Source: Akkermansia muciniphila (GTDB taxonomy: Bacteria > Verrucomicrobiota > Verrucomicrobiia > Limisphaerales > SXQI01). Taken from it: a stretch of 46,583 nucleotides of DNA. Below the pieces are notes generated by a model that was not told the DNA's origin, ran no database searches, and worked only from the letters and a program-made list of their open reading frames with translations. The position numbers and the translations under genes are program-made. This document shows, in pieces, positions 4,925-45,999 of this stretch (positions within the stretch are counted from its first letter, which is position 1; the number at the start of each line of letters is the position of its first letter). The stretch is from contig CAMBHS010000003.1 of the NCBI GenBank assembly GCA_945867235.1, positions 1-46,583 on the forward strand, read 5' to 3'.

Positions 4925-5746
4925 TTATCGGTGAAAGTGGCTGACCCAGCGTTCTAATAGATTGATTGCTGCGAGCAAAAGGATGGAGATCACCAGAAGA
5001 ACAACCGCAATGCTCATCGCGGCCGAGTATTCGAATTGTTCGAGCAACGATACAATTAGCAAGGGAGCAATCTCAGTTTTATACTGCATGTTGCTCGAAA
5101 TAAAAATCACGGATCCATATTCTCCAAGAGCGCGAGCGAATGAGAGCACAAACCCCGTGAGAACAGCGGGCAACAAACTCGGAGCAACGACACTTATAAA
5201 AGTTCTGAATCGGCTTGCTCCCAAAGTTGCCGCTGCCTCCTCCACTTCGCGTTCCATTTGCTCAAGAACTGGTTGCAATGTGCGCACCACGAACGGCAGG
5301 CTCACAAAGATTAAAGCTAATACGACTGCGAGTTGACTGTAGGCTCCTTTGATTCCTAACGGCACAAGAAACTGTCCGAGCCACCCATTTGGACTGAATA
5401 AATTGGCCAATGTCAATCCAGCCACCGCTGTGGGAAGGGCGAAAGGAATATCGACTAGGGCATCCACGAAACGCTTACCTGGAAATGAATAACGAACTAA
5501 AACCCAAGCCAGCAGCGTGCCGAAGATTGCGTTCACAAAAGCCGCTAAGAATGACGCTCCAAAACTGAGGCGGTAGGCGGCCAATGCACGAGGGGTGGTC
5601 GCGTGAGCCCAAAAATCTCCCCAGCTTAATTGGAAGACTTTGAAAATCATTCCACCTATGGGCAATAGAACGAGCACGCCGAGGTAGAACAGCGTGAAAC
5701 CCATGGTGCGCCGAAACCCCGGCATGGCGTTAAAATGTTGCGACAT
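4925..5746 (-). CDS. cysT: Sulfate ABC transporter permease
   Basis: DIPFALPTAVAG, EEAAATLGA, ARALGEYGSVIFI. Confidence 0.93.
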   Translation of the reverse strand: MSQHFNAMPGFRRTMGFTLFYLGVLVLLPIGGMIFKVFQLSWGDFWAHATTPRALAAYRLSFGASFLAAFVNAIFGTLLAWVLVRYSFPGKRFVDALVDIPFALPTAVAGLTLANLFSPNGWLGQFLVPLGIKGAYSQLAVVLALIFVSLPFVVRTLQPVLEQMEREVEEAAATLGASRFRTFISVVAPSLLPAVLTGFVLSFARALGEYGSVIFISSNMQYKTEIAPLLIVSLLEQFEYSAAMSIAVVLLVISILLLAAINLLERWVSHFHR

Positions 5747-5907
5747 CTTTATTGGATTGGACGCTACTCAATATTTCCTCGGGGTCGCAAGTCTCGCCCA
5801 CCTAGGCACTCCTCACGAACCAAAATTGTTTTAACTGTTCTTCATCATGACAATCATCGTCTCATCGACATCGACCTCCTGAATTGTTTCTCCTCGAAAT
5901 TTCCTGC

Positions 5908-6996
5908 CTAACGACCGGCTGCGGCGGCCGTAATTTGGTCGAATAAACCGCTTTCTTTAAAATGCCGTTGGTGCGCCTGCGTCCATCCGCCAAACATTTC
6001 CTCCACCGTGAATAATTTCATATCGGGAAATTTGATTTTGTTTTTTAAAATAATTGGCTGCGAACGAGGTCGGAAATAATGCTTCGCACAAAGTTCCTGA
6101 CCTATTTCTGAATACAAAAATGTCAGATAAGCTTCTGCGACTTCCTTGTTTCCTTTTTTAGTGGCAATCCGATCCACCACCGCCACCGGAGGTTCTGCGA
6201 GAATGCTCCACTCGGGTCGAATCAATTCAAATTTGTTGGTGCCATTTTCCGCCATAATCAGGAGAGCTTCACTTTCCCATGCCATGAGGACATCCCCCAT
6301 TAAGCGTTTTACAAAAGTAGTCGTGGCTCCTCGTGCTCCGGAGTCGAAAACGGGAATATTCTTTAGAAATTGTTCCAGATATTTTTGCGCCTCTTGTTCA
6401 TTCCCCGGGTTTCGCTTCAGTACCGCACCGTAGGCTGCCAAGTAATTCCACCTTGCCCCCCCCGAGGTCTTGGGATTGGCCATGATGATTTCGGTGCCAT
6501 CTTTTACCAAATCGATCCAATCATGGATTTTCTTTGGGTTACCGGCACGAACAAGAAACACGATCGTTGAAGTATAGGGAGCACTTTTATTAGGAAAATG
6601 CTGCTGCCAATCGCTTGGGAGCATTTTACCCTGCTTGGCGATGACATCGATATCGTAACCTAGCGCGAGAGTGACAACGTCGGCATCCAATCCCTCGATC
6701 ACCGCGCGAGCCTGTTTCCCTGACCCCCCGTGGGATTGGGCAATTTTCACAACATTCCCCGTCTTATCCTTCCAATTTTTTGCAAAAGCAGCATTAAAAT
6801 CGACGTAAAACTCCCGGGTAGGATCATAGGAGACGTTGAGTAACCGAATGGTATCGGCCATCGTTCCCGACATTTCCGAGAAGAATGCTAGGAAAAAAAC
6901 CACCCAAACAAGCCAACGACTCCCACCCAACCTCGGGTTTTCCCCAAGGCGTTGGGGCTTGCAGGAGAACTTGATGATGTTATCCAATGCATCCAT
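5908..6996 (-). CDS. sbp: Sulfate ABC transporter substrate-binding protein (start codon uncertain)
   Basis: LLNVSYDPTRE, QSHGGSGKQARAV, NPKTSGGARW, DSGARGATTTF; hydrophobic signal-like segment. Confidence 0.93.
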   Translation of the reverse strand: MDALDNIIKFSCKPQRLGENPRLGGSRWLVWVVFFLAFFSEMSGTMADTIRLLNVSYDPTREFYVDFNAAFAKNWKDKTGNVVKIAQSHGGSGKQARAVIEGLDADVVTLALGYDIDVIAKQGKMLPSDWQQHFPNKSAPYTSTIVFLVRAGNPKKIHDWIDLVKDGTEIIMANPKTSGGARWNYLAAYGAVLKRNPGNEQEAQKYLEQFLKNIPVFDSGARGATTTFVKRLMGDVLMAWESEALLIMAENGTNKFELIRPEWSILAEPPVAVVDRIATKKGNKEVAEAYLTFLYSEIGQELCAKHYFRPRSQPIILKNKIKFPDMKLFTVEEMFGGWTQAHQRHFKESGLFDQITAAAAGR

Positions 6997-15066: not shown

Positions 15067-17601
15067 TCAATGCCTAGGAAGTTTCAACTTATGGTCGATC
15101 CGGCGAGTTTGATAATGCTCCAATGGTGGAAATTCTCGCTGAGTGGGAGAGGCGACCTCATTCAACATATCTTTCGCAAAACTTTGCAAGGCTGTCCACC
15201 GCGCCCCTTCCAGAGAAGGGGCGTGGCTGATCTGGCGTAACACACTGCGCCATTCGATAATCATCCGGTCAATATCACCCACTCCTAGGATCGGGGTGAC
15301 CCATTTGTATTTAGATTGAGGCAATTGGTGCACCGCCGCGACGATTTCTGCAGCGCCATACCCGTATTTAGGAGGTATGCCGTTCTCCAAATACCCAGGA
15401 ATGCTGACAAGCCCGTAGGCTTTATTGCAAACTTTTGCCAATCGCCCCATATAACGATTTTCGTCCCCACAAAACCGAAATCCTCCATCCAGATTTGCCA
15501 GATCATAAACCAAATCAGGGATCGGGTAATCTGCATCCTCCAAGGCAGCGGCAATCGCCAAACCATCACCTTGCGAAAAAAAACTTACGATCTGCCCTTT
15601 CAAGGTGGGGGTGCCCGTTTCATCCACAAGATTCAACCTTCGCCATTGCAACGCAGTCCCGGTTGATGTCGGGAGAGCTTGGCAATCAGTGACCAACGAG
15701 CATTGGGAGCAGGGCACCGGAATGGCCTCACGCTCAGAGGGTCGCCATAAGGCTACTCCTGCATCATCTATCGGCACACGAAGCGATTGCTCAGCCAAGC
15801 TGACCTCCGCGACTATTTTAAGAGGGTGTTCCTTGAGTCTCACGAGGGGTGTTTTTTCCATCGCAAGCTTTTCTCCTAAAAGTAGGATCACTTTACCGTT
15901 CCATTCATCGACAGAGACTTGGCGTCTGGGCCACAGAGTCAGGCGGCGCACCCATTTGGTGAGAAGAATCTGGCCGTTGTTCAACCGTTCTGCGACGGTC
16001 ATTTCGCGTCCGTAAACTTTGACCCCATCCTCCTCAGACACGACACAAAGGTTTCCAAACCCGATTTTTTCGAGTGCTACCGGTTCGGTAAGCACACTTC
16101 TCAAGGCGATAGGCTCACCTGATTCACCCTTTGAAAGGGTTGCATTTGGTGAAAAAAATACCTTTCCTGCAGCTACGAGTGTTGGCTCCGGTTTGGGCTG
16201 CCAAAGTTGCCGGCTGTTGAACATTTCCCGAACTCGCTTACGCACCAATCGAGCTCGTTCTGAATCGGTTCGAAGTCCGCAAGGAGTAACAGGGTTTTTA
16301 AGAGATTCCTCGACTCCTAGAAAAATTCTCTTGTTAGTAAATAGTCGTCCTTGGACACGGACGGCCTCGGCGTAGGGGTTAAGCCCCGCCCGAGAGGCTT
16401 CGCTCATAATTCTAAGCAATGTCCCCCAATCCACCAATGCTCCGCGTGACAATGATGCAAGGCTCGCATCGATCAACCGTAGGCCGTTGGAGGTCACCAA
16501 AGCGAACCCAGTTTCGTCTAAACCTCGGCGTCCCGCGCGTCCGAACATTTGCAGGATTTCATCCGACCGGAGGGGTTGTTCGACCTGTTCCCGTCGATAG
16601 GATTCGCCCGAGAGTGCGACACTACGCAAAGAGAAATTGATCCCCGCAGCCAACCCCATCGTCGCGACCACCACTCGCAACTGCCCTGCTTTGGTCAACG
16701 GCTCGATAATCCCAGCACGGCAAGCATAACTTAATCCACTATGGTGGTATGTGATCCGACTTTTGAGCAGCTTTGCGAGGTGCTCACCTGTGATCATCCG
16801 CTGTTCCGGTGTCAAGTTGAGCGGATTGGGATTCGGCAAATATTTCGCCAGTTCATTGGCCATGATCTCGGCAGCTTGGCGACGGGGGGCAAAAATAAGG
16901 ATTGGCCCTAAATCCTCTGCCAAGGCTTTTGCTACAAGGCGTGGCCAATATCCTTGGATATCGTTTGGCAGATGGTAACTGAGGTTGTTTGCCTGTATTT
17001 CCTCCAATGGCACAGGTCGGTGGTCATAACGAATCAACTGAGCCGTTCGACCCAATCGATTAAGCCATTGAACGATGTGGTGAGGATTAGCCACACTGCC
17101 ACTGAGTAACAATAACTGGGTTTGAGAAGGTGCCAGTGCGATGGCCAGTTCATAATTGAGACCTCGATCAGGATCGCCCAACATTTGATACTCATCCACC
17201 ACCAGCAAAGAAGGACCGTCACCCGCAATTAAACGTGCTTTCTGCGTTTCTAATGTCGCAACGATAACAGGAGCACTTAGGTTGTCGGAAATATCTCCGG
17301 TTGCAATTCCAACATTCCAACCTCGAGCTCTCCACTCCGCAAGCTTGTCATTGGCCAGAGCACGGGTTGGCACGGTGTAAATCGCTTGCCCACGGTTTTT
17401 TCCTTGATTGGACCACAGTTCAAAAATCAAGGTCTTCCCTGCCCCTGTGGGCGCATGAACCACCACATCCTTTCCGGTGCGCAGAGCTGCAACAGCCTCT
17501 TGTTGCCAAAGGTCAGGAATGGTTACCTGCTGAAGTCCCTGCAACCCATCCCAAGAATCCTGCGTATTAAAATGAATTCCTGCGTTAGAGAGCATGGGCA
17601 A
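15067..17601 (-). CDS. Ski2/HelY-like SF2 (DExD/H) helicase
   Basis: APTGAGKT (I), PTRALANDK (Ia), DEYQ (II), SGS (III), ATMGLAAGIN (V), QMFGRAGRRG (VI); long C-terminal extension. An ATG at 17595 is an alternative start. Confidence 0.88.
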   Translation of the reverse strand: MPMLSNAGIHFNTQDSWDGLQGLQQVTIPDLWQQEAVAALRTGKDVVVHAPTGAGKTLIFELWSNQGKNRGQAIYTVPTRALANDKLAEWRARGWNVGIATGDISDNLSAPVIVATLETQKARLIAGDGPSLLVVDEYQMLGDPDRGLNYELAIALAPSQTQLLLLSGSVANPHHIVQWLNRLGRTAQLIRYDHRPVPLEEIQANNLSYHLPNDIQGYWPRLVAKALAEDLGPILIFAPRRQAAEIMANELAKYLPNPNPLNLTPEQRMITGEHLAKLLKSRITYHHSGLSYACRAGIIEPLTKAGQLRVVVATMGLAAGINFSLRSVALSGESYRREQVEQPLRSDEILQMFGRAGRRGLDETGFALVTSNGLRLIDASLASLSRGALVDWGTLLRIMSEASRAGLNPYAEAVRVQGRLFTNKRIFLGVEESLKNPVTPCGLRTDSERARLVRKRVREMFNSRQLWQPKPEPTLVAAGKVFFSPNATLSKGESGEPIALRSVLTEPVALEKIGFGNLCVVSEEDGVKVYGREMTVAERLNNGQILLTKWVRRLTLWPRRQVSVDEWNGKVILLLGEKLAMEKTPLVRLKEHPLKIVAEVSLAEQSLRVPIDDAGVALWRPSEREAIPVPCSQCSLVTDCQALPTSTGTALQWRRLNLVDETGTPTLKGQIVSFFSQGDGLAIAAALEDADYPIPDLVYDLANLDGGFRFCGDENRYMGRLAKVCNKAYGLVSIPGYLENGIPPKYGYGAAEIVAAVHQLPQSKYKWVTPILGVGDIDRMIIEWRSVLRQISHAPSLEGARWTALQSFAKDMLNEVASPTQREFPPLEHYQTRRIDHKLKLPRH

Positions 17602-17703
17602 AACTTAGCTGATGTTACCTGAAGCGGAAGATCAGAGTTGATGCGGACCCGCATCCTCCCTTTTTGATCTCCCTCGTCATCATCGGTTCCTTCAACCCTA
17701 AGA

Positions 17704-18666
17704 TTAGTCGTTCATAAGAGTTTGAACATGGCGGGCCGATGCACTCGCAAGCCCGCTGAGGTTGTAACCCCCTTCCAAAATTGAGACGAGCCTGCCACCA
17801 GCGTGCTCACGCGCGATGCTTAATACCACTTTGGTAAGGTCCGAAAAATCCTCGTCGGTTAGCAAAAATTCTCCCAACGGATCGCCTACTCGTGAATCGA
17901 AACCCGCTGAAATAAGAACCAATTCAGGTTTGAAAAGGTTGGCAGCCTTTACGAGGCGATCCTCAAAAACACCCAGTATCTTCTTCCGCCCTGTTCCCGC
18001 TGGAAACGGATTATTTTTGATACACCCTAGCCCTCGACCGGTTCCCGTTTCCGAAGCGTCGCCTGTGCCTGGATAAAGCGGGTGTTGATGGGTGTCAAAA
18101 AATAACACGGATCCGTCGGCATAAAAAACGTCCTGAGTCCCGTTGCCGTGATGGACATCCCAATCTGCGATTAAAATTTTCCCCAACCCTAGTTTCTTTT
18201 GAGCATGCCGAGCTGCGAGGGCGATGTTATTGAACAAGCAAAAACCCATCCCCTTGTTGCTGGATGCATGATGACCGGGTGGCCTGACAATACAAAATGC
18301 ATTTTTCGCTTTCCCACCTACAACTTCCTCGACCGCTCGAATCACCCCACCGGCTGCCAATACAGCAACGTCGAAAGAATCTGAACTAATGTTCGTATCC
18401 CCCGTACTCAGATAGGGAGCCCCACGCGCGACATCCTCGCGAGCCGTGGTCACATAACTAGGAAGGTGCACGCGCTCCAATTCGGCAATTGTCGCCCTTC
18501 GTGGTTCCTTCCAAACCAGTTTTTTGTCGACGTCCATCCGCAGCAGAGCCTCGCTCACTCGTTGGGAACGAGCTGGACTCTCGGGATGCCCCGCCCCGGT
18601 CTGATGCTTCTGATAATCCGAGGAAGAAATAATTGCCGTTGAATTCATGTCCTCTGCATACCACAT
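17704..18666 (-). CDS. Zn-dependent histone deacetylase-family (AcuC/HdaH-like) amidohydrolase
   Basis: HPESPAR, RPPGHHA, GFCLFNN, DWDVHHGNGTQ, SAGFD, LEGGY. Confidence 0.93.
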   Translation of the reverse strand: MWYAEDMNSTAIISSSDYQKHQTGAGHPESPARSQRVSEALLRMDVDKKLVWKEPRRATIAELERVHLPSYVTTAREDVARGAPYLSTGDTNISSDSFDVAVLAAGGVIRAVEEVVGGKAKNAFCIVRPPGHHASSNKGMGFCLFNNIALAARHAQKKLGLGKILIADWDVHHGNGTQDVFYADGSVLFFDTHQHPLYPGTGDASETGTGRGLGCIKNNPFPAGTGRKKILGVFEDRLVKAANLFKPELVLISAGFDSRVGDPLGEFLLTDEDFSDLTKVVLSIAREHAGGRLVSILEGGYNLSGLASASARHVQTLMND

Positions 18667-23304: not shown

Positions 23305-24195
23305 TCAACCCACCCATGCACGAAGGTTAGGGTAATGACTTTGGAGATGTGGTAGAAAAGATGAACCGCGAACCAGCAAGGCGGTCGAAAGCGCATCCGT
23401 TATCGTGGCGGAAGAATGCATAACAGCCGCAAATTGTGCTGCCTCTGTGGGTTCACCTGTATGAGGATCGATAACATGTCCAAAGGTTTTGCCTTCCTGA
23501 GTAAACGACTTCCCCCAGCAAGCGGAGAATGAAAGTGCAGATTCGTGTAGTTCGACAGTTTTAATCTCTCGTGGTGAACACCCAGTCGGTGCTGGAAGCG
23601 CAACTTTCCAAATCTGGTCGTCTATCCCGTGCCCCATCGCAATCACCGTGCTCGTGCCACCGTGAAGAAGAGCTGAATGGATTTCATGGTCGTGAAGAAT
23701 CCCTGCCGCACAATCAATGGCATAACCTTTACCAATGGACCCCAAATCAATCTGAACTGATGGGTGGGTGAATCGCACCGTTTGGTTTTCCTCGTTGAAC
23801 AATAAATGGTGACAACCCACCTGCGATTTGGCTTCGGAGAGTTGGTCTGCGGAAGGGATGCGACTTGCCCCGCCTGAAAAACCCCAGATACGAAGCAACG
23901 GTGCCACGGTGATGTCAAAGGCTCCAAGAGTCTGGGCGGAAAGTTGGACAGCCAATTGAAGGAGACGAAAAACCTCCAGATTGACACGGACAGGCCGCAC
24001 GCCCGCCTCGCGATTGAGGGCACAGATCTCACTGGTGGGGCGGTAATAACTGAGTTGCCCTTCGATGCGTTCGATTTCATCGAGTGCTTCCTCGGCAGCA
24101 GCCTGCAAGCCCGGCGTGACTTTCCCAGGAAGGACAAGTTCAAACCGAGTCGCCATGGCATTCCGAGCGGCTTTTAATGAGGTTTCAGTTTCCAC
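23305..24195 (-). CDS. apbE: FAD:protein FMN transferase (ApbE family)
   Basis: AMATRF, SEICALN, GAFDITV, DLGSIGKGYAID, HVIDPHTG, DALSTA. No N-terminal signal or lipobox. Confidence 0.9.
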   Translation of the reverse strand: METETSLKAARNAMATRFELVLPGKVTPGLQAAAEEALDEIERIEGQLSYYRPTSEICALNREAGVRPVRVNLEVFRLLQLAVQLSAQTLGAFDITVAPLLRIWGFSGGASRIPSADQLSEAKSQVGCHHLLFNEENQTVRFTHPSVQIDLGSIGKGYAIDCAAGILHDHEIHSALLHGGTSTVIAMGHGIDDQIWKVALPAPTGCSPREIKTVELHESALSFSACWGKSFTQEGKTFGHVIDPHTGEPTEAAQFAAVMHSSATITDALSTALLVRGSSFLPHLQSHYPNLRAWVG

Positions 24196-24229
24196 ACATA
24201 GATCAAAGTCGCTCAGAAACTAGGGAATC

Positions 24230-24262
24230 AAAAGAAAAAGGTCCAAGTTTGCACCCGGACCC
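24230..24262 (-). terminator. Intrinsic terminator after the Gfo/Idh/MocA gene
   Basis: Minus-strand RNA GGGUCCGGGU-GCAA-ACUUGGACCU forms a 10-bp stem (with G-U pairs) and a GNRA tetraloop, followed by UUUUCUUUU. Confidence 0.75.
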
Positions 24263-24285
24263 TATCGAAAGAAACAGGCTAAGGA

Positions 24286-25674
24286 CTATGAAAGATCGGT
24301 CCAGCCGTAGGAGATGGGTTTCAACTCGGTGACGGGCATAACCTTGCCGTCGCCGGTGGTGATTTTGCGTGTCTTTGGATCGAATTTGCAAGCCACTCCA
24401 AGGCGTTCGGACATTTCTCCCAGCGAGATAACTGTCTGCACCTTTGTGGCCAAATCGATATTGCCATTAGGAGACTTGCCGTCACGGATACAATCGAACC
24501 AGTTCTTTTCATGAACGGCAACAGATTCACCTGGCTTGATTCCGGGGATGGTTTCCGGTTCGACTTCTTCGGCAAATTGCCGTTCTGGTTTGAGTTCGAC
24601 GCGGTTGCCAGACATGTAAAGCGTTCCTTTATGTCCATTAATCTGCTCGATCAGACCCGATTCACAAACCGTGCTGGAAATCATGACCAAAGTCAGGCCA
24701 CTAGGAAATTCAGCCAATAATTCGACATGTTCTGGCACGTCGCGTTCGGGAGTCCCAGGAGTGTTTTTGTCGCTGTGAACGCGTTTTGTGGCGATGCTTA
24801 CGACGCGTGTAGGATATTCAGGATTGCCTGAAGCGAGCATATAAGGATGCAATCGGTGAGGGAAAAGATCACCCAGCAACCCACCGCAATAGGGGTAATA
24901 TTTGCGCCAACGGAAATAATGATCGGGATTGAATGGGATTTTTTTGCTAACCGGTCCCAACCAATTTTGCCAATTCAAATTTTCGGCTTTGGCATTGGGG
25001 TCGATATTGTAATTCCATTCCCCCTTGGGGTTATTACGAGGGTAGGAACCTTGAGCCATAACCAACTGCCCAATTTTGCCAGCCTTGATCAACTCGGCGG
25101 CTTTGTGCCACTTCGCATCCGAGCAACCCTGTGAGCCAACCTGGAAAACGATTTTGCTATTCTTGACGGCGTCGTGAATTTGAAAGGCTTCCCCGAGATA
25201 CCGCGTCATGGGTTTCTCGACGTAAATGTGTTTGCCTGCTTGGATGGCATCCAACGAACATTTGGTGTGCCAATGATCCACTGTAGCAATGGTGACAGCG
25301 TCAATATCCTTACGTTCCAATAATTTCCGATAGTCGTTGAAACCTTGGCAATTGGCTCCGATATAGGTTTTCGCCGAGTCGATTCGGTTTTGCCAGACAT
25401 CGCAGGCAGCGACGAGTTCGACATTATTGGCAGCGGCATCTTCCTTCTGCGAACGGACGTGGGACATACCTTGTCCTCCCACGCCGATGAATCCGACTAC
25501 GATGCGTGAATTCGCGCCGATGACTCGCCCTAGCGAAGGGGCTTGGTTTTGCCCATAAACCGGGGTTTTAAAAATGTTTATGGCGGCCACGGCGGCAGCC
25601 GCAGTCGTGGTCTGTTTGATAAAATTCCGACGGGAGTTCGGGTCGGAAACTTTTGGGCTCTGGTTTTTTTGCAT
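24286..25674 (-). CDS. Tat-exported Gfo/Idh/MocA family oxidoreductase
   Basis: SRRNFIK twin-arginine signal, GFIGVGGQG, ACDV, IATVDHWH, HIYVEKP, QVGSQ. Confidence 0.92.
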   Translation of the reverse strand: MQKNQSPKVSDPNSRRNFIKQTTTAAAAVAAINIFKTPVYGQNQAPSLGRVIGANSRIVVGFIGVGGQGMSHVRSQKEDAAANNVELVAACDVWQNRIDSAKTYIGANCQGFNDYRKLLERKDIDAVTIATVDHWHTKCSLDAIQAGKHIYVEKPMTRYLGEAFQIHDAVKNSKIVFQVGSQGCSDAKWHKAAELIKAGKIGQLVMAQGSYPRNNPKGEWNYNIDPNAKAENLNWQNWLGPVSKKIPFNPDHYFRWRKYYPYCGGLLGDLFPHRLHPYMLASGNPEYPTRVVSIATKRVHSDKNTPGTPERDVPEHVELLAEFPSGLTLVMISSTVCESGLIEQINGHKGTLYMSGNRVELKPERQFAEEVEPETIPGIKPGESVAVHEKNWFDCIRDGKSPNGNIDLATKVQTVISLGEMSERLGVACKFDPKTRKITTGDGKVMPVTELKPISYGWTDLS

Positions 25675-25877
25675 AAAACTCTAAGATTTATTGGGTAACG
25701 CTTGCAGGATAATCAAATTGCAATAAGGGTCAATCCCCAACCGACACCCGCAACGCGTTATTGCGAGGCAAGTATCAGCAGCTCTATTTGACTCCGCAAG
25801 ACACCTAAACATTCAGAGCGAATTTCTACGAATACCGAGACTGCCTCGCATGAAATTTCTCGCCCAGTAGGGTCGAA

Positions 25878-27956
25878 TTGATGAGGATGGGGGTAGCAAT
25901 ATTAAACTTCATGACACCTGACGAAGCCCAGCATCGCCATAACCAAATCGCCGACCGAATCAGGATGCATGACGAGGCTTACTACATTCACGATCGACCG
26001 ACGATTTCGGATCAAGAATACGACCAACTGTATCGTGAATTGCTTGATTTGGAAAAAGTGTTTTCCAATTTGGCTGGCATCGATTCACCCAGTCAACGGG
26101 TGGGGGGAGCCCCTTTAAGTTCGTTCGATTCCGTAAGACACCGAACACCACTTCTCAGTTTGGACAACACCTACTCGCACAATGAAGTTGGGCAGTTTAC
26201 AGCGCGGTTGCAACGACTATTGCCTAACGAAAAGTTAGATTGGATTGTCGAACCTAAAGTGGATGGATTAGCGATAAACCTCCGTTATGAAAATGGCAGG
26301 TTGTCGGTTGGCGCAACTCGGGGAGACGGGGTTGAGGGGGACAACATCACAGCCAATCTCAAAACGATACGCGGCCTTCCACTACAAATAAAAACTCCAC
26401 TTCACGGGAGTGTTCCAAAATGTTTTGAAGTCAGAGGTGAAGTTTTTTTGCGAAAAAAAGCATTCGCCAAACTCAACTTAGACCGTCTGGCTTCAGGTGA
26501 AGAGGCATTTGCCAACGCTCGGAATGCTGCCTCTGGTTCGCTCAAACAACTGGATCCTCGCGAGGTGGCGAAAAGACATCTCGATCTGATCATTTACGGT
26601 CTTGGTTTCATCGAGACCGAGGGCGAGCCTCCTTTTAGAACACATGCCGAGGCCTTGCGTTGGTTGACCGCGTTAGGATTCAAAACTCCCGAACGCACCT
26701 GGGCATGCCAAGAACCCGAGGAAATAATATCGGCACTGAACGCACTCGACCAAATCAGAAAATCTTTCGATTACGAAACAGACGGAGCCGTGATTAAGCT
26801 TAATCATCTAGGCTTGCGTGAACGAGCTGGCTTCACCTCAAAAGCACCCCGCTGGGCGATGGCGTATAAGTATGCTGAGGAAAAAGCGGAAACCAAACTC
26901 ATTGGGATCACAATCCAGGTAGGAAGAACCGGAGCCTTGACGCCGGTGGCTGAATTGCAACCAGTCCTGCTCTCCGGCAGCACCATCAGTCGAGCGACAC
27001 TTCATAACGAGGACGAGTTAAGGCGCAAGGATATCAGGATTGGCGACACTGTGATTATTAAAAAAGCGGGCGAAGTGATCCCCGCCGTAGTAGGTGTTGT
27101 TATTGAAAAACGAACAGGGAGCGAAACCCTGTTTGAATTTCCAAATGCTTGCCCCGAATGTCAGGGATCTATCGAACGGACGCAAACCCCAGATGGGACT
27201 GGAGTCGTTTGGCGATGTAAGAATCTGGAATGCCCCGCACAAGTCCGAGCACGTTTTGAGCATTGGTGCTGCCGAGGGGCAATGGACATCGAAGGGGGCG
27301 GTGAAGTTTTGGCAAAACAATTGGTAGCCCATCAAGTGGCTCGCGACGTTTCTGATCTTTATCAAATTTCATTGCCTCAGCTCGCAGGACTGGAGCGCAT
27401 GGGAGAAAAGTCGGCTGGGACCTTTCTTGAAGGATTGGAGGCCAGTAAAACCCGTGATCTCTGGCGGTTGCTTTTTGCGCTGGGTATTTTGCATGTAGGA
27501 ACCAGAACTGCCAAATCATTAGGTCTCCATTTTTCAACCCTTGACGATCTCGCTTTAGCTTCGGTTGAGCACTTAGAAAAGTTGGATGATATTGGAACGG
27601 TGATCGCCGAAAGTTTGACAAAATGGTTCTCGGATGAACGAAATCAAGCCTTGATCGAACGATTGCGTCTAGCCGGTTTGAATTTTTCCTCTGAACTTTT
27701 CCGATCGGAAATTACGGGGAAGGCGAGACCCTTGGATGGAATGACCTTTGTCCTGACGGGGTCTCTTCCCACCTTGACGCGTGAGGAGGCGACGGCTCAA
27801 ATCGAATCCGCCGGCGGCAAAGTAAATACAAGTGTGAGTAAAAAAACAACCTATGTCCTCGCTGGCAAGGAAGCTGGGTCGAAACTGGATAAAGCGCAGA
27901 AACTGGGCGTAAAAATAATCGACGAACCAAGTTTCTTAAAGCTCATGGGTGAATAA
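25878..27956 (+). CDS. ligA: NAD-dependent DNA ligase
   Basis: EPKVDG (adenylated Lys), ATRGDG, EVRGEV, TDGAVIK, PRWAMAYK, Zn finger CPEC...C...C, HhH repeats, BRCT (SVSKKT). The true start may be 25911. Confidence 0.97.
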   Translation: MMRMGVAILNFMTPDEAQHRHNQIADRIRMHDEAYYIHDRPTISDQEYDQLYRELLDLEKVFSNLAGIDSPSQRVGGAPLSSFDSVRHRTPLLSLDNTYSHNEVGQFTARLQRLLPNEKLDWIVEPKVDGLAINLRYENGRLSVGATRGDGVEGDNITANLKTIRGLPLQIKTPLHGSVPKCFEVRGEVFLRKKAFAKLNLDRLASGEEAFANARNAASGSLKQLDPREVAKRHLDLIIYGLGFIETEGEPPFRTHAEALRWLTALGFKTPERTWACQEPEEIISALNALDQIRKSFDYETDGAVIKLNHLGLRERAGFTSKAPRWAMAYKYAEEKAETKLIGITIQVGRTGALTPVAELQPVLLSGSTISRATLHNEDELRRKDIRIGDTVIIKKAGEVIPAVVGVVIEKRTGSETLFEFPNACPECQGSIERTQTPDGTGVVWRCKNLECPAQVRARFEHWCCRGAMDIEGGGEVLAKQLVAHQVARDVSDLYQISLPQLAGLERMGEKSAGTFLEGLEASKTRDLWRLLFALGILHVGTRTAKSLGLHFSTLDDLALASVEHLEKLDDIGTVIAESLTKWFSDERNQALIERLRLAGLNFSSELFRSEITGKARPLDGMTFVLTGSLPTLTREEATAQIESAGGKVNTSVSKKTTYVLAGKEAGSKLDKAQKLGVKIIDEPSFLKLMGE

Positions 27957-44475: not shown

Positions 44476-44769
44476 ATGCTGAGGAAAGACCCTGTTCTGA
44501 TCGGTTGGACACTGACATTACTAGCGGCGGTGACGATTACTGCTGCTTTTTGCTGTTGGTATCTAACCTGCTCAAGGCAATTACAAAACCTGCAACGTGA
44601 AATTGTCGCCATCAACCGAAACCGTGCCATCCTTCAAGCCTTGGGGAACGAATGCATTGAATACTCCAAAAATAATCCTGCCATTAACCCTATACTGCTA
44701 AAGGTTGGGTTGAAGGGTAAGCTTGATCCATCAGGTTCTGCATCACCCAACTTAAATGCAAAACAGTGA
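44476..44769 (+). CDS. Hypothetical single-TM coiled-coil protein (paralog A)
   Basis: N-terminal TM helix, amphipathic helix, EYSKNNPAINPILLKVG. Confidence 0.7.
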   Translation: MLRKDPVLIGWTLTLLAAVTITAAFCCWYLTCSRQLQNLQREIVAINRNRAILQALGNECIEYSKNNPAINPILLKVGLKGKLDPSGSASPNLNAKQ

Positions 44770-45145
44770 TCCATCGACAGGGACACCCGCTGAAAACAAA
44801 GCGCAGGAATCCGCCGATCTGCAGTCTATTGTTCGAACACTTCGAAACGCACTCCTTTTAACCATCGCTGCCCTGCTTCTGCTCACCGGCACATTCTGCA
44901 TTTACCTTTATCGCGAAGTCATTTTAATCCGACGCCAAACCGACGAACTCGCCCGGATTGTTATCGATTATCAGAAATCGGCTTTACCACAATTGCAGGA
45001 TTTCAAATCGAAACTTCACGAGTTCGCCAAAACCAATTCGAATTTCGCGCCCATCCTCGGGAAATTTTTCGGAACCAACGCCTCCATAACGCTTCCCTCA
45101 GTGAACAGCATTCCCAGCCTACCCTCTCAGCTAGGCACACCGTAA
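44756..45145 (+). CDS. Hypothetical single-TM coiled-coil protein (paralog B)
   Basis: TM helix, amphipathic helix, EFAKTNSNFAPILGKFFG; overlaps the previous gene by 14 bp. Confidence 0.7.
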   Translation: MQNSDPSTGTPAENKAQESADLQSIVRTLRNALLLTIAALLLLTGTFCIYLYREVILIRRQTDELARIVIDYQKSALPQLQDFKSKLHEFAKTNSNFAPILGKFFGTNASITLPSVNSIPSLPSQLGTP

Positions 45146-45243
45146 AACACGTTCAAGTTAACTGATCATTGAATAGGTTCCAGTCGTTCGCCAGACTTTG
45201 TGATTACCGAATTAATGGAATTATTTTGATGGGAAGTAGTCGA

Positions 45244-45259
45244 GGAAGAGGAGGGATTT
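45244..45259. repeat. 16-bp exact copy of the tRNA-Ser 3' end (att-like direct repeat)
   Basis: GGAAGAGGAGGGATTT at 45244-45259 is identical to 45914-45929 within the tRNA. Confidence 0.85.
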
Positions 45260-45317
45260 TCCCGTTTGAATAAAACCCCCGCTGGATGCGTCCCCATTAA
45301 AGAGATATTCTTACTCT

Positions 45318-45737
45318 ATGAAACCATTCACCATTGCAATCTTTTTATTCACGGTGACCGTCAGTTCGCTGTTTGCTGCTGATGCGAAAAAGACACCAGT
45401 GCCCGGCACCGATGACTTGAGCCGTTATACTGCCACTAAAGCAGCCGCCAGTGGAGGCACACGCACCACCTTTCAAGACAGCTCAGGTCGGTCGACCGGA
45501 AGCGCCACGGTTATTGGCGGCCGAACAGTGTTTCGTGATGCTTCAGGACGGAACACAGGGGCAGCCTCCAGCACAGGCACGCGCACGACCTTTCAAGACA
45601 GCTCAGGTCGGTCGATTGGCAGTTCCACGGTAATTGGTGGTCGAACTGTATTTCGTGATGCTTCAGGACGCTCGACTGGCTCCAGTTCAACCACAGGAGC
45701 AAAACAGCCGAGTGCCACGAATCAACGAGGACGCTAA
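45318..45737 (+). CDS. Small secreted protein with four 20-aa Gly/Ser/Thr-rich repeats
   Basis: Signal peptide (…SSLFA|AD); repeats RT(T/V)F(Q/R)D(S/A)SGR(S/N)xG. Confidence 0.75.
   Translation: MKPFTIAIFLFTVTVSSLFAADAKKTPVPGTDDLSRYTATKAAASGGTRTTFQDSSGRSTGSATVIGGRTVFRDASGRNTGAASSTGTRTTFQDSSGRSIGSSTVIGGRTVFRDASGRSTGSSSTTGAKQPSATNQRGR
45462..45701 (+). repeat. Intragenic tandem repeat, 4 x 60 bp with 120-bp higher-order period
   Basis: CTTTCAAGACAGCTCAGGTCGGTCGA recurs 120 bp apart (about 45470 and 45590); TTTCGTGATGCTTCAGGACG recurs about 45531 and 45651. Confidence 0.88.
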
Positions 45738-45872
45738 ATATTGGATGAATGCGGGAGCCTGGGTCAGAGGGCTGGCCAGTTAGGTTGCTTCTGAGCCACG
45801 ATCCAATTGGATGGTAGCTTCTTCAGAAGGAACAGACTGTCGATTGCAACCTACAGTATAGGTGCCAGCGCG

Positions 45873-45906
45873 AAAAAATCTTCGTCCGCCAAATTTTGAT
45901 GCGAAG
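45873..45906 (-). terminator. Probable terminator after tRNA-Ser
   Basis: Imperfect hairpin CUUCG...CGAAG followed by AUUUUUU on the minus strand. Confidence 0.45.
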
Positions 45907-45909
45907 CCA

Positions 45910-45999
45910 TGGCGGAAGAGGAGGGATTTGAACCCCCGGTACCCTTGCGAGTACGCCTGATTTCGAGTCAGGTGCCTTCGGCCACTCAGCCACTCTTCC
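45910..45999 (-). tRNA. tRNA-Ser (anticodon CGA), 90 nt with encoded CCA
   Basis: Acceptor stem GGAAGAG/CTCTTCC, discriminator G, CCA; anticodon arm CCTGA-CTCGAAA-TCAGG; long variable arm; T-loop TTCAAAT. Confidence 0.97.

Follow-up and report, generated by a model that had tools for sequence, protein, structure and literature searches.

A single-gene islet bounded by a direct repeat of tRNA-Ser(CGA) in a Limisphaerales genome: a candidate remnant of tyrosine-integrase insertion

The tRNA-Ser(CGA) locus and its direct repeat

The stretch of DNA analyzed here, which we call the window, is the entire 46.6-kb contig C3 of a metagenome-assembled genome that comprises 2.72 Mb in 199 contigs. The host is an uncultured bacterium of freshwater or soil that belongs to a Pedosphaera-like lineage of the Limisphaerales (Verrucomicrobiota). 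ARAGORN calls a single tRNA in the window, an intact 90-nt tRNA-Ser(CGA) gene on the minus strand (45910 to 45999) with an encoded G73 discriminator and CCA end. Rfam agrees with this call (tRNA, 55.3 bits) and returned nothing besides this tRNA between positions 44900 and 46250. The gene is 97% identical to its counterpart in a sister species.

Facing the tRNA is one cargo gene on the plus strand (45318 to 45737), identified from the list of open reading frames, whose 139-aa product begins with a signal-peptide-like segment and contains repeats of ~20 aa. Between these two convergent genes lies an imperfect long hairpin (45777 to 45840, assigned to neither strand) with the core palindrome ATCCAATTGGAT; it carries no T-run, and its fold is not significant (z = -1.5). 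The initial annotation had also placed a probable tRNA terminator between the repeat copies, a proposal that our analysis does not bear out: a terminator consensus scan at this site found none, and the fold there is no better than that of shuffled sequences (z = +0.87). On the far side of the cargo gene, adjoining the distal repeat, the native flank consists of two overlapping plus-strand genes for small membrane proteins of 97 and 129 aa (44476 to 45145). This pair is kept in 9 of the 13 other genomes of the family, and tRNA-Ser is absent from the ~1.5-kb flanks examined in them. The genomes that have the pair belong to other genera of the family; none of the three congeneric species was found to have it.

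The segment between the tRNA and this native flank is bounded by a direct repeat. A 16-mer, AAATCCCTCCTCTTCC, occurs exactly at 45244 to 45259 and again at 45914 to 45929, both in tRNA sense, and represents tRNA positions 71 to 86, which make up the final four T-loop nucleotides and the 3' strands of the T-stem and acceptor stem. The initial annotation had described this 16-mer, duplicated 670 bp apart, as att-like and very unlikely to have arisen by chance. Both statements stand, and the repeat proved longer than claimed. At the same spacing of 670, it spans 37 nt with 31 of 37 positions identical, extending 21 nt past the exact 16-mer in the same register. The proximal, attL-like copy (45893 to 45929, minus strand) comprises tRNA positions 71 to 90 and 17 nt of downstream flank, while the distal, attR-like copy (45223 to 45259, minus strand) has TCGA in place of the GCCA of the tRNA. 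Together the copies enclose 633 bp of unique sequence. The arrangement is thus that of an att-type duplication, in which the 3' part of a tRNA, from the T-loop onward, recurs in direct orientation downstream of the intact tRNA. The identity block begins at position 4 of the T-loop and ends short of the discriminator and CCA; the T-loop is listed in the literature among the canonical sublocations for tRNA-targeting integrases, together with the anticodon loop and the 3' end.

With up to two mismatches allowed, no third copy of the 16-mer is present in the window, and none of 100 shuffled windows gave two matches (0.03 matches expected, against the 2 observed). With up to one mismatch allowed, no further copy exists in the whole 2.72-Mb assembly, so the 16-mer is neither a chance match nor a dispersed repeat. 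We also considered a longer homology beyond the 37-mer and rejected it, since similarity on either side was not above that of shuffled controls (P ~0.4). This is therefore a short repeat that encloses unique DNA, not a segmental duplication. The distal junction is 100% identical in an ENA assembly and in an independent Logan assembly of run ERR5863117.

The mismatches between the two copies are unevenly placed. Read in tRNA sense, the repeat consists of 16 exact nucleotides, then 7 nt with two matches, then 14 nt with 13 matches. The 7-nt block reads GCCATGG in the tRNA copy (the discriminator, CCA, and three nucleotides more) and TCGACTA in the distal copy, which accordingly lacks both discriminator and CCA; identity resumes in the downstream flank. 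All six mismatches fall within 12 nt between two clean blocks, a clustering that we estimate to have a chance probability of ~0.01, so plain decay of a once-perfect 37-mer does not account for the pattern. The repeat looks more like two related sites that were never identical than like a perfect repeat that has decayed. It may, for instance, have arisen from an attP whose version of the tRNA end was imperfect, if the crossover took place in the downstream block. In another species of the genus (G001), the tRNA-Ser(CGA) discriminator is U (TCCA), and we speculate that a single substitution in such an allele could have produced the distal TCGA. The distal copy also bears the acceptor variant CTCTTCC which, among 12 tRNA-Ser(CGA) genes compared, is found only in the host and its closest sister. 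The duplication is therefore younger than that substitution, and so relatively young.

The cargo gene, its candidate promoter and its distribution

That a single gene lies between the copies, as first annotated, was confirmed. An internal tandem duplication of 2 x 120 nt at 82% identity (45441 to 45680, plus strand) makes up part of it, and the Logan contig breaks inside this duplication. A Pfam search with the protein returned no family, even at E <= 10. An AF2 model, built from a three-sequence alignment, contains eight beta strands at residues 49 to 124 (pLDDT 70 to 82), arranged as beta-hairpin repeats. A fold search of the PDB with this model gave no match at E < 0.01, and its best hits did not include a YD protein. 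We therefore rejected membership in the YD/Rhs group, as neither profile nor fold supports it, and the "YD-like" character of the cargo is a resemblance only. The cargo is predicted to be an exported beta-hairpin-repeat protein of an uncharacterized family. Its GC content of 55% is driven by second codon positions (GC2 0.69) and hence by amino acid content, and GC3 (0.47) and codon usage are within the genome range (0.53 +/- 0.06). A foreign composition of the gene was rejected on these grounds.

The initial annotation had noted a candidate promoter for the cargo gene, which our analysis supports and refines to an ECF-sigma-type motif, TGAAT-N17-CGTC (45267 to 45292, plus strand), conserved upstream of homologues. 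It starts 8 nt after the distal repeat and is followed by AAGAGA at 45300 to 45305 and by the ATG at 45318. The same TGAAT-N17-CGTC, followed by T(A/G)AAGA at equal register, occurs in five sequences of the cargo family from different families (the window, L018, L020, L022, and L024). We take the motif to have the form of an ECF-sigma promoter, with a (G)GAAC/T-like -35 box, a CGTC -10 box, and a spacing of 16 to 17 nt. We infer that it acts as an ECF promoter of the cargo gene.

A TGAAT-N16-CGTC match lies immediately upstream of an ECF sigma/anti-sigma pair in the same genome (contig C70:6350-6992). Genome-wide, the motif has 54 hits compared with ~41 that we estimate to be expected by chance, so the link between the motif and the C70 sigma factor is no more than suggestive. 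The N16 site on C70 ends only 6 nt before the ATG of the sigma gene, and the mRNA may therefore be leaderless. Other motif matches precede genes for signal-peptide proteins, from which a small ECF regulon is possible.

The cargo gene was found in none of the 13 other genomes of the family, three species of the same genus included, which suggests that it was acquired somehow. Among ~290 genomes sampled from other families of the order, 17 carry it. Searching 5.8 billion clustered proteins with the cargo recovered only two relatives, and a scan of a genome-contig collection with the cargo alignment found nothing. Judged from this distribution, the segment between the copies looks acquired. The homologues have no neighboring genes in common, every one of them residing in different surroundings, and none of nine homologues from other genomes or contigs has a flanking repeat of at least 12 nt. 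One homologue lies 212 nt from a tRNA-Met, between ftsH and tsaD, and has no repeat; another shares its examined locus with a tRNA-Arg and has no tRNA-derived repeat.

Relatives, integrases and other tRNA scars

An islet that entered by insertion should have an empty counterpart, and the initial annotation had proposed that it be sought in close relatives. DNA and six-frame comparisons with 40 relatives matched only the tRNA-Ser(CGA) gene itself. Synteny with the host is lacking in all three congeneric species both upstream and downstream of this tRNA, and no empty-site allele was found among them. Neither the 129-aa flank protein nor the 37-mer pattern gave a hit in metagenome scans, which may miss near-identical records, and the other assemblies retrieved by exact-protein look-ups are 100% identical, with the site filled. 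Partial matches to the tRNA-Ser 3' end in relatives, considered as att scars, turned out to be other serine isoacceptors. In the closest sister, G002, clpC-mcsB-mcsA lies upstream of tRNA-Ser(CGA) and unrelated DNA lies downstream, with 59% GC compared with 49% upstream. This downstream DNA, probably another island occupying this slot, encodes a helicase-C-terminal/zinc-ribbon-like protein (L015, G002:C158, 5565-6994).

Integrases do adjoin this tRNA elsewhere in the order. Genes for tyrosine integrases that are 49% identical to each other lie directly downstream of tRNA-Ser(CGA) in G027 (C50) and G200 (C42), and more distant members of this integrase family adjoin tRNA-Arg, tRNA-Lys, and tRNA-Pro. 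G200, which belongs to another family than the host, carries its island at L059/L068 (G200:C42, about 23795-25302) and, on a different contig, an orphan perfect 61-nt copy of tRNA positions 30 to 90, CCA included (L167, G200:C4, about 1956-2016). This copy illustrates the form of an intact att at tRNA-Ser(CGA) in the order. No attR of the G200 island was found within 25 kb on the contig of the integrase; it was located instead on C4. On the evidence of these gene arrangements, tRNA-Ser(CGA) is a real integrase target in Limisphaerales.

The host genome contains five PF00589 matches, none of them on contig C3. A tblastn search of the islet with a tRNA-Ser-linked integrase, which would detect an integrase remnant, gave only noise. 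The cognate tRNA-Ser-targeting integrase that the initial annotation had suggested looking for in the genome did not emerge, as no homologue of the tRNA-Ser(CGA)-linked family of the relatives was found there. The genome has tyrosine-integrase genes on C90 (~1078-2333), C41 (~17116-18340), and C24 (~25109-26110). These start ~40 to 90 nt beyond the 5' ends of opposite-strand tRNA genes for Thr-UGU, Ala-CGC, and Arg-UCU, respectively, and are divergent from them, unlike the integrases of classical islands, which lie downstream of the tRNA 3' end.

When tRNA fragments were surveyed across the same genome, four further orphan 3' pieces emerged, from tRNA-Ser(GGA) (26 nt), tRNA-Pro (24 nt), tRNA-Thr(UGU) (46 nt), and tRNA-Arg(CCG) (26 nt). 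All four, as well as the G200 scar, extend through the CCA end. The 46-nt piece of tRNA-Thr is located at C22:26823-26868, and a 40-nt 5' half of tRNA-Arg(UCG) is located at C10:3219-3258.

The tRNA-Arg(CCG) piece belongs to a second integrase-less islet, of 1.2 kb (C91:5317-6722), in which the tRNA (5317-5393) is followed by a 26-nt copy of its end (6613-6638, one mismatch, CCA included) and then by ileS. The cargo of this islet (5796-6524) consists of a PIN toxin gene (Pfam E = 1.2e-9) and a weak CopG-like partner. A short open reading frame in the islet was considered as an integrase N terminus and was not confirmed as such. In two sister species, homology ends at the 3' end of tRNA-Arg(CCG) and resumes ~40 nt past the 26-nt repeat, just upstream of ileS; the tRNA and ileS are on separate contigs in these species, and the intervening segment is absent. 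Taken together, the patterns at C91 and in G002 indicate that tRNA flanks are hot spots for insertion and rearrangement in the genus, which could explain why an empty site was not recovered.

Origin of the repeat and of the islet

The reading that we favor, with slightly more confidence than doubt, is that the repeat and the islet are an inert scar of a tyrosine-integrase insertion at tRNA-Ser(CGA), similar to a cis-mobilizable element (CIME). In this scenario, a past site-specific insertion of the tyrosine-integrase type into the 3' end of the tRNA gene, with crossover at or after the T-loop, would have left the attL/attR scar, and the 633 bp between the copies would be the remainder of the inserted DNA or its original whole. 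The islet would be a self-contained unit in which an ECF-type promoter drives transcription, toward the tRNA, of a single gene for a small exported beta-hairpin-repeat protein. As it has no recombinase, it is now most likely immobile, and the tRNA would have been left intact by the insertion. The repeats may still permit loss of the segment, whether catalyzed by an incoming integrase or caused by slippage or recombination of the copies. The attP of the parent integrase-bearing element would be expected to contain AAATCCCTCCTCTTCCTCGACTACTTCCCATC. That an integrase created the repeat, and that the cargo came with it, are steps that we infer. Our confidence in the insertion scar is not higher because there is no trace of an integrase or of an empty site, because the distal copy is missing the discriminator and CCA, and because the mismatches are clustered. 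The initial annotation had left the choice between a decayed island with one retained gene and a minimal single-gene cassette mobilized in trans; the decayed island fits the data best, and the cassette is unsupported.

The strongest competing explanation, which we consider unlikely though worth serious attention, separates the repeat from this insertion. The distal copy would be the remnant of a second tRNA-Ser, or an orphan att fragment joined to the locus by rearrangement or deletion, and the arrival of the cargo could be a separate event. Gene order around tRNA genes has indeed been reshuffled within the genus, as in the comparison of the tRNA-Arg(CCG) islet with the sister species, and the mosaic structure of the 37-mer and its missing CCA are compatible with different pasts for the two copies. 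The native-like composition of the cargo is another point in favor. Against this explanation, the distal copy has no residual similarity to the tRNA body upstream of the 16-mer (P = 0.38). In addition, the 14 nt of downstream flank within the repeat match at 13 of 14 positions, which indicates that both copies share one origin, flank included. The absence of the cargo from the whole family, hence its probable acquisition, also argues against this explanation.

We regard it as very improbable that the islet is a working minimal cassette, made of att ends, a promoter, and one gene, and moved in trans by an integrase specific for tRNA-Ser whose gene would reside at another locus of the cell or on an incoming element. 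Several features have the look of such a cassette: both att-like copies are kept, with the 16-nt core perfect; the unit is compact, with its promoter 8 nt from the repeat; and the genome contains another islet without an integrase, at tRNA-Arg(CCG), as well as three tRNA-adjacent integrase genes (C90, C41, and C24). Against these stands the fact that the islet is present in a single copy in the genome, and that none of the nine cargo homologues has a flanking repeat of at least 12 nt; the homologue near tRNA-Met and the one sharing its examined locus with tRNA-Arg show no tRNA-derived repeat. Moreover, the only tRNA-Ser(CGA) integrase family found in the order has no homologue here and uses a 61-nt att, and the discriminator and CCA positions of the distal copy are degenerate. 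The broader version of this idea is that the islet is a live member of an unrecognized class of miniature, recombinase-less att cassettes, shuffled in trans among Limisphaerales by T-loop-type integrases of co-resident elements. We find this highly doubtful; if true, it would account for the presence of an ECF-controlled secreted-protein gene in different surroundings in each genome.

Finally, chance or faulty assembly as the source of the repeat is scarcely credible: although the contig comes from a metagenome-assembled genome in 199 contigs, the number of matches (0.03 expected, 2 observed) and the 31/37 extension at the same register exclude chance, the ENA and single-run Logan assemblies are 100% identical, and repeats of 16 nt are not long enough to confuse k-mer assemblers.

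Read as an insertion scar, the islet can be set beside several known systems. Classical tRNA-linked islands and islets, such as the pathogenicity islands at selC and leuX of uropathogenic Escherichia coli, are bounded by 16- to 20-bp direct repeats of the tRNA 3' end. The islet shares with them a short direct repeat of this kind, an intact tRNA at one end, and a patchily distributed cargo that looks acquired. Unlike them, it has neither an integrase nor a pseudo-integrase, shows no compositional deviation, and has a repeat that is interrupted at the discriminator and CCA. The islands of G027 (C50) and G200 (C42) have the same target tRNA within the same order and, as in our islet, inserted DNA downstream of the tRNA 3' end. 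In those islands, a tyrosine integrase of ~420 aa adjoins the tRNA, whereas the islet has none. The repeats differ as well: that of G200 is a perfect 61 nt from position 30, in the anticodon stem, through the CCA, while that of the islet is exact over 16 nt and has its start at position 71, in the T-loop. The tRNA-Arg(CCG) islet on C91 is similar in that both are short, lack an integrase, have an intact tRNA on one side and a direct repeat of that tRNA's 3' end on the other, and are equipped with self-contained cargo. It differs in its 26-nt repeat with one mismatch, which covers the whole T-arm and the CCA, and in its PIN-toxin/antitoxin-like pair.

CIMEs are elements that have lost their integration and transfer genes and still possess attL and attR (Guedon et al. 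2017, PMC5704250). Like a CIME, the islet has direct att-like repeats at the 3' end of its target gene, no integrase or transfer genes, and accessory cargo only. It is far smaller than a CIME (0.67 kb, one gene), and its att copies are imperfect (31 of 37 positions identical, with the distal CCA end lost). A further difference is that neither a parent ICE/IME nor a cognate integrase was found for it, the one tRNA-Ser(CGA) integrase family found in the order using a 61-nt att. Most likely, then, the islet is a very small new example of a common and known type of genomic leftover.

If this reading is true, the islet, with one gene in 0.67 kb, is among the smallest documented tRNA-linked insertion scars, and its host lineage, the Pedosphaera-like Verrucomicrobia with their streamlined 2.7-Mb genomes, has received little study. 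It would also mean that the decay of an island can leave behind one self-sufficient, host-regulated gene. Our understanding of tRNA-targeted integration is left unchanged by the finding. The more useful by-product is the cargo family itself, predicted to encode an exported beta-hairpin-repeat protein and patchily distributed in the order with a conserved ECF-type promoter; export, promoter, and patchy spread together make it a tractable candidate member of an envelope-stress regulon.

Two minor observations concern the tRNA genes of the assembly. The tRNA-Ser isoacceptors called are CGA, GGA, and UGA only; tRNA-Ser(GCU) was not called, probably because the metagenome-assembled genome is ~96% complete. 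On contig C112 (5396-5473), ARAGORN calls a 78-nt tRNA with anticodon UUA ("tRNA-Stop"), which may be a suppressor-like tRNA or a false call.
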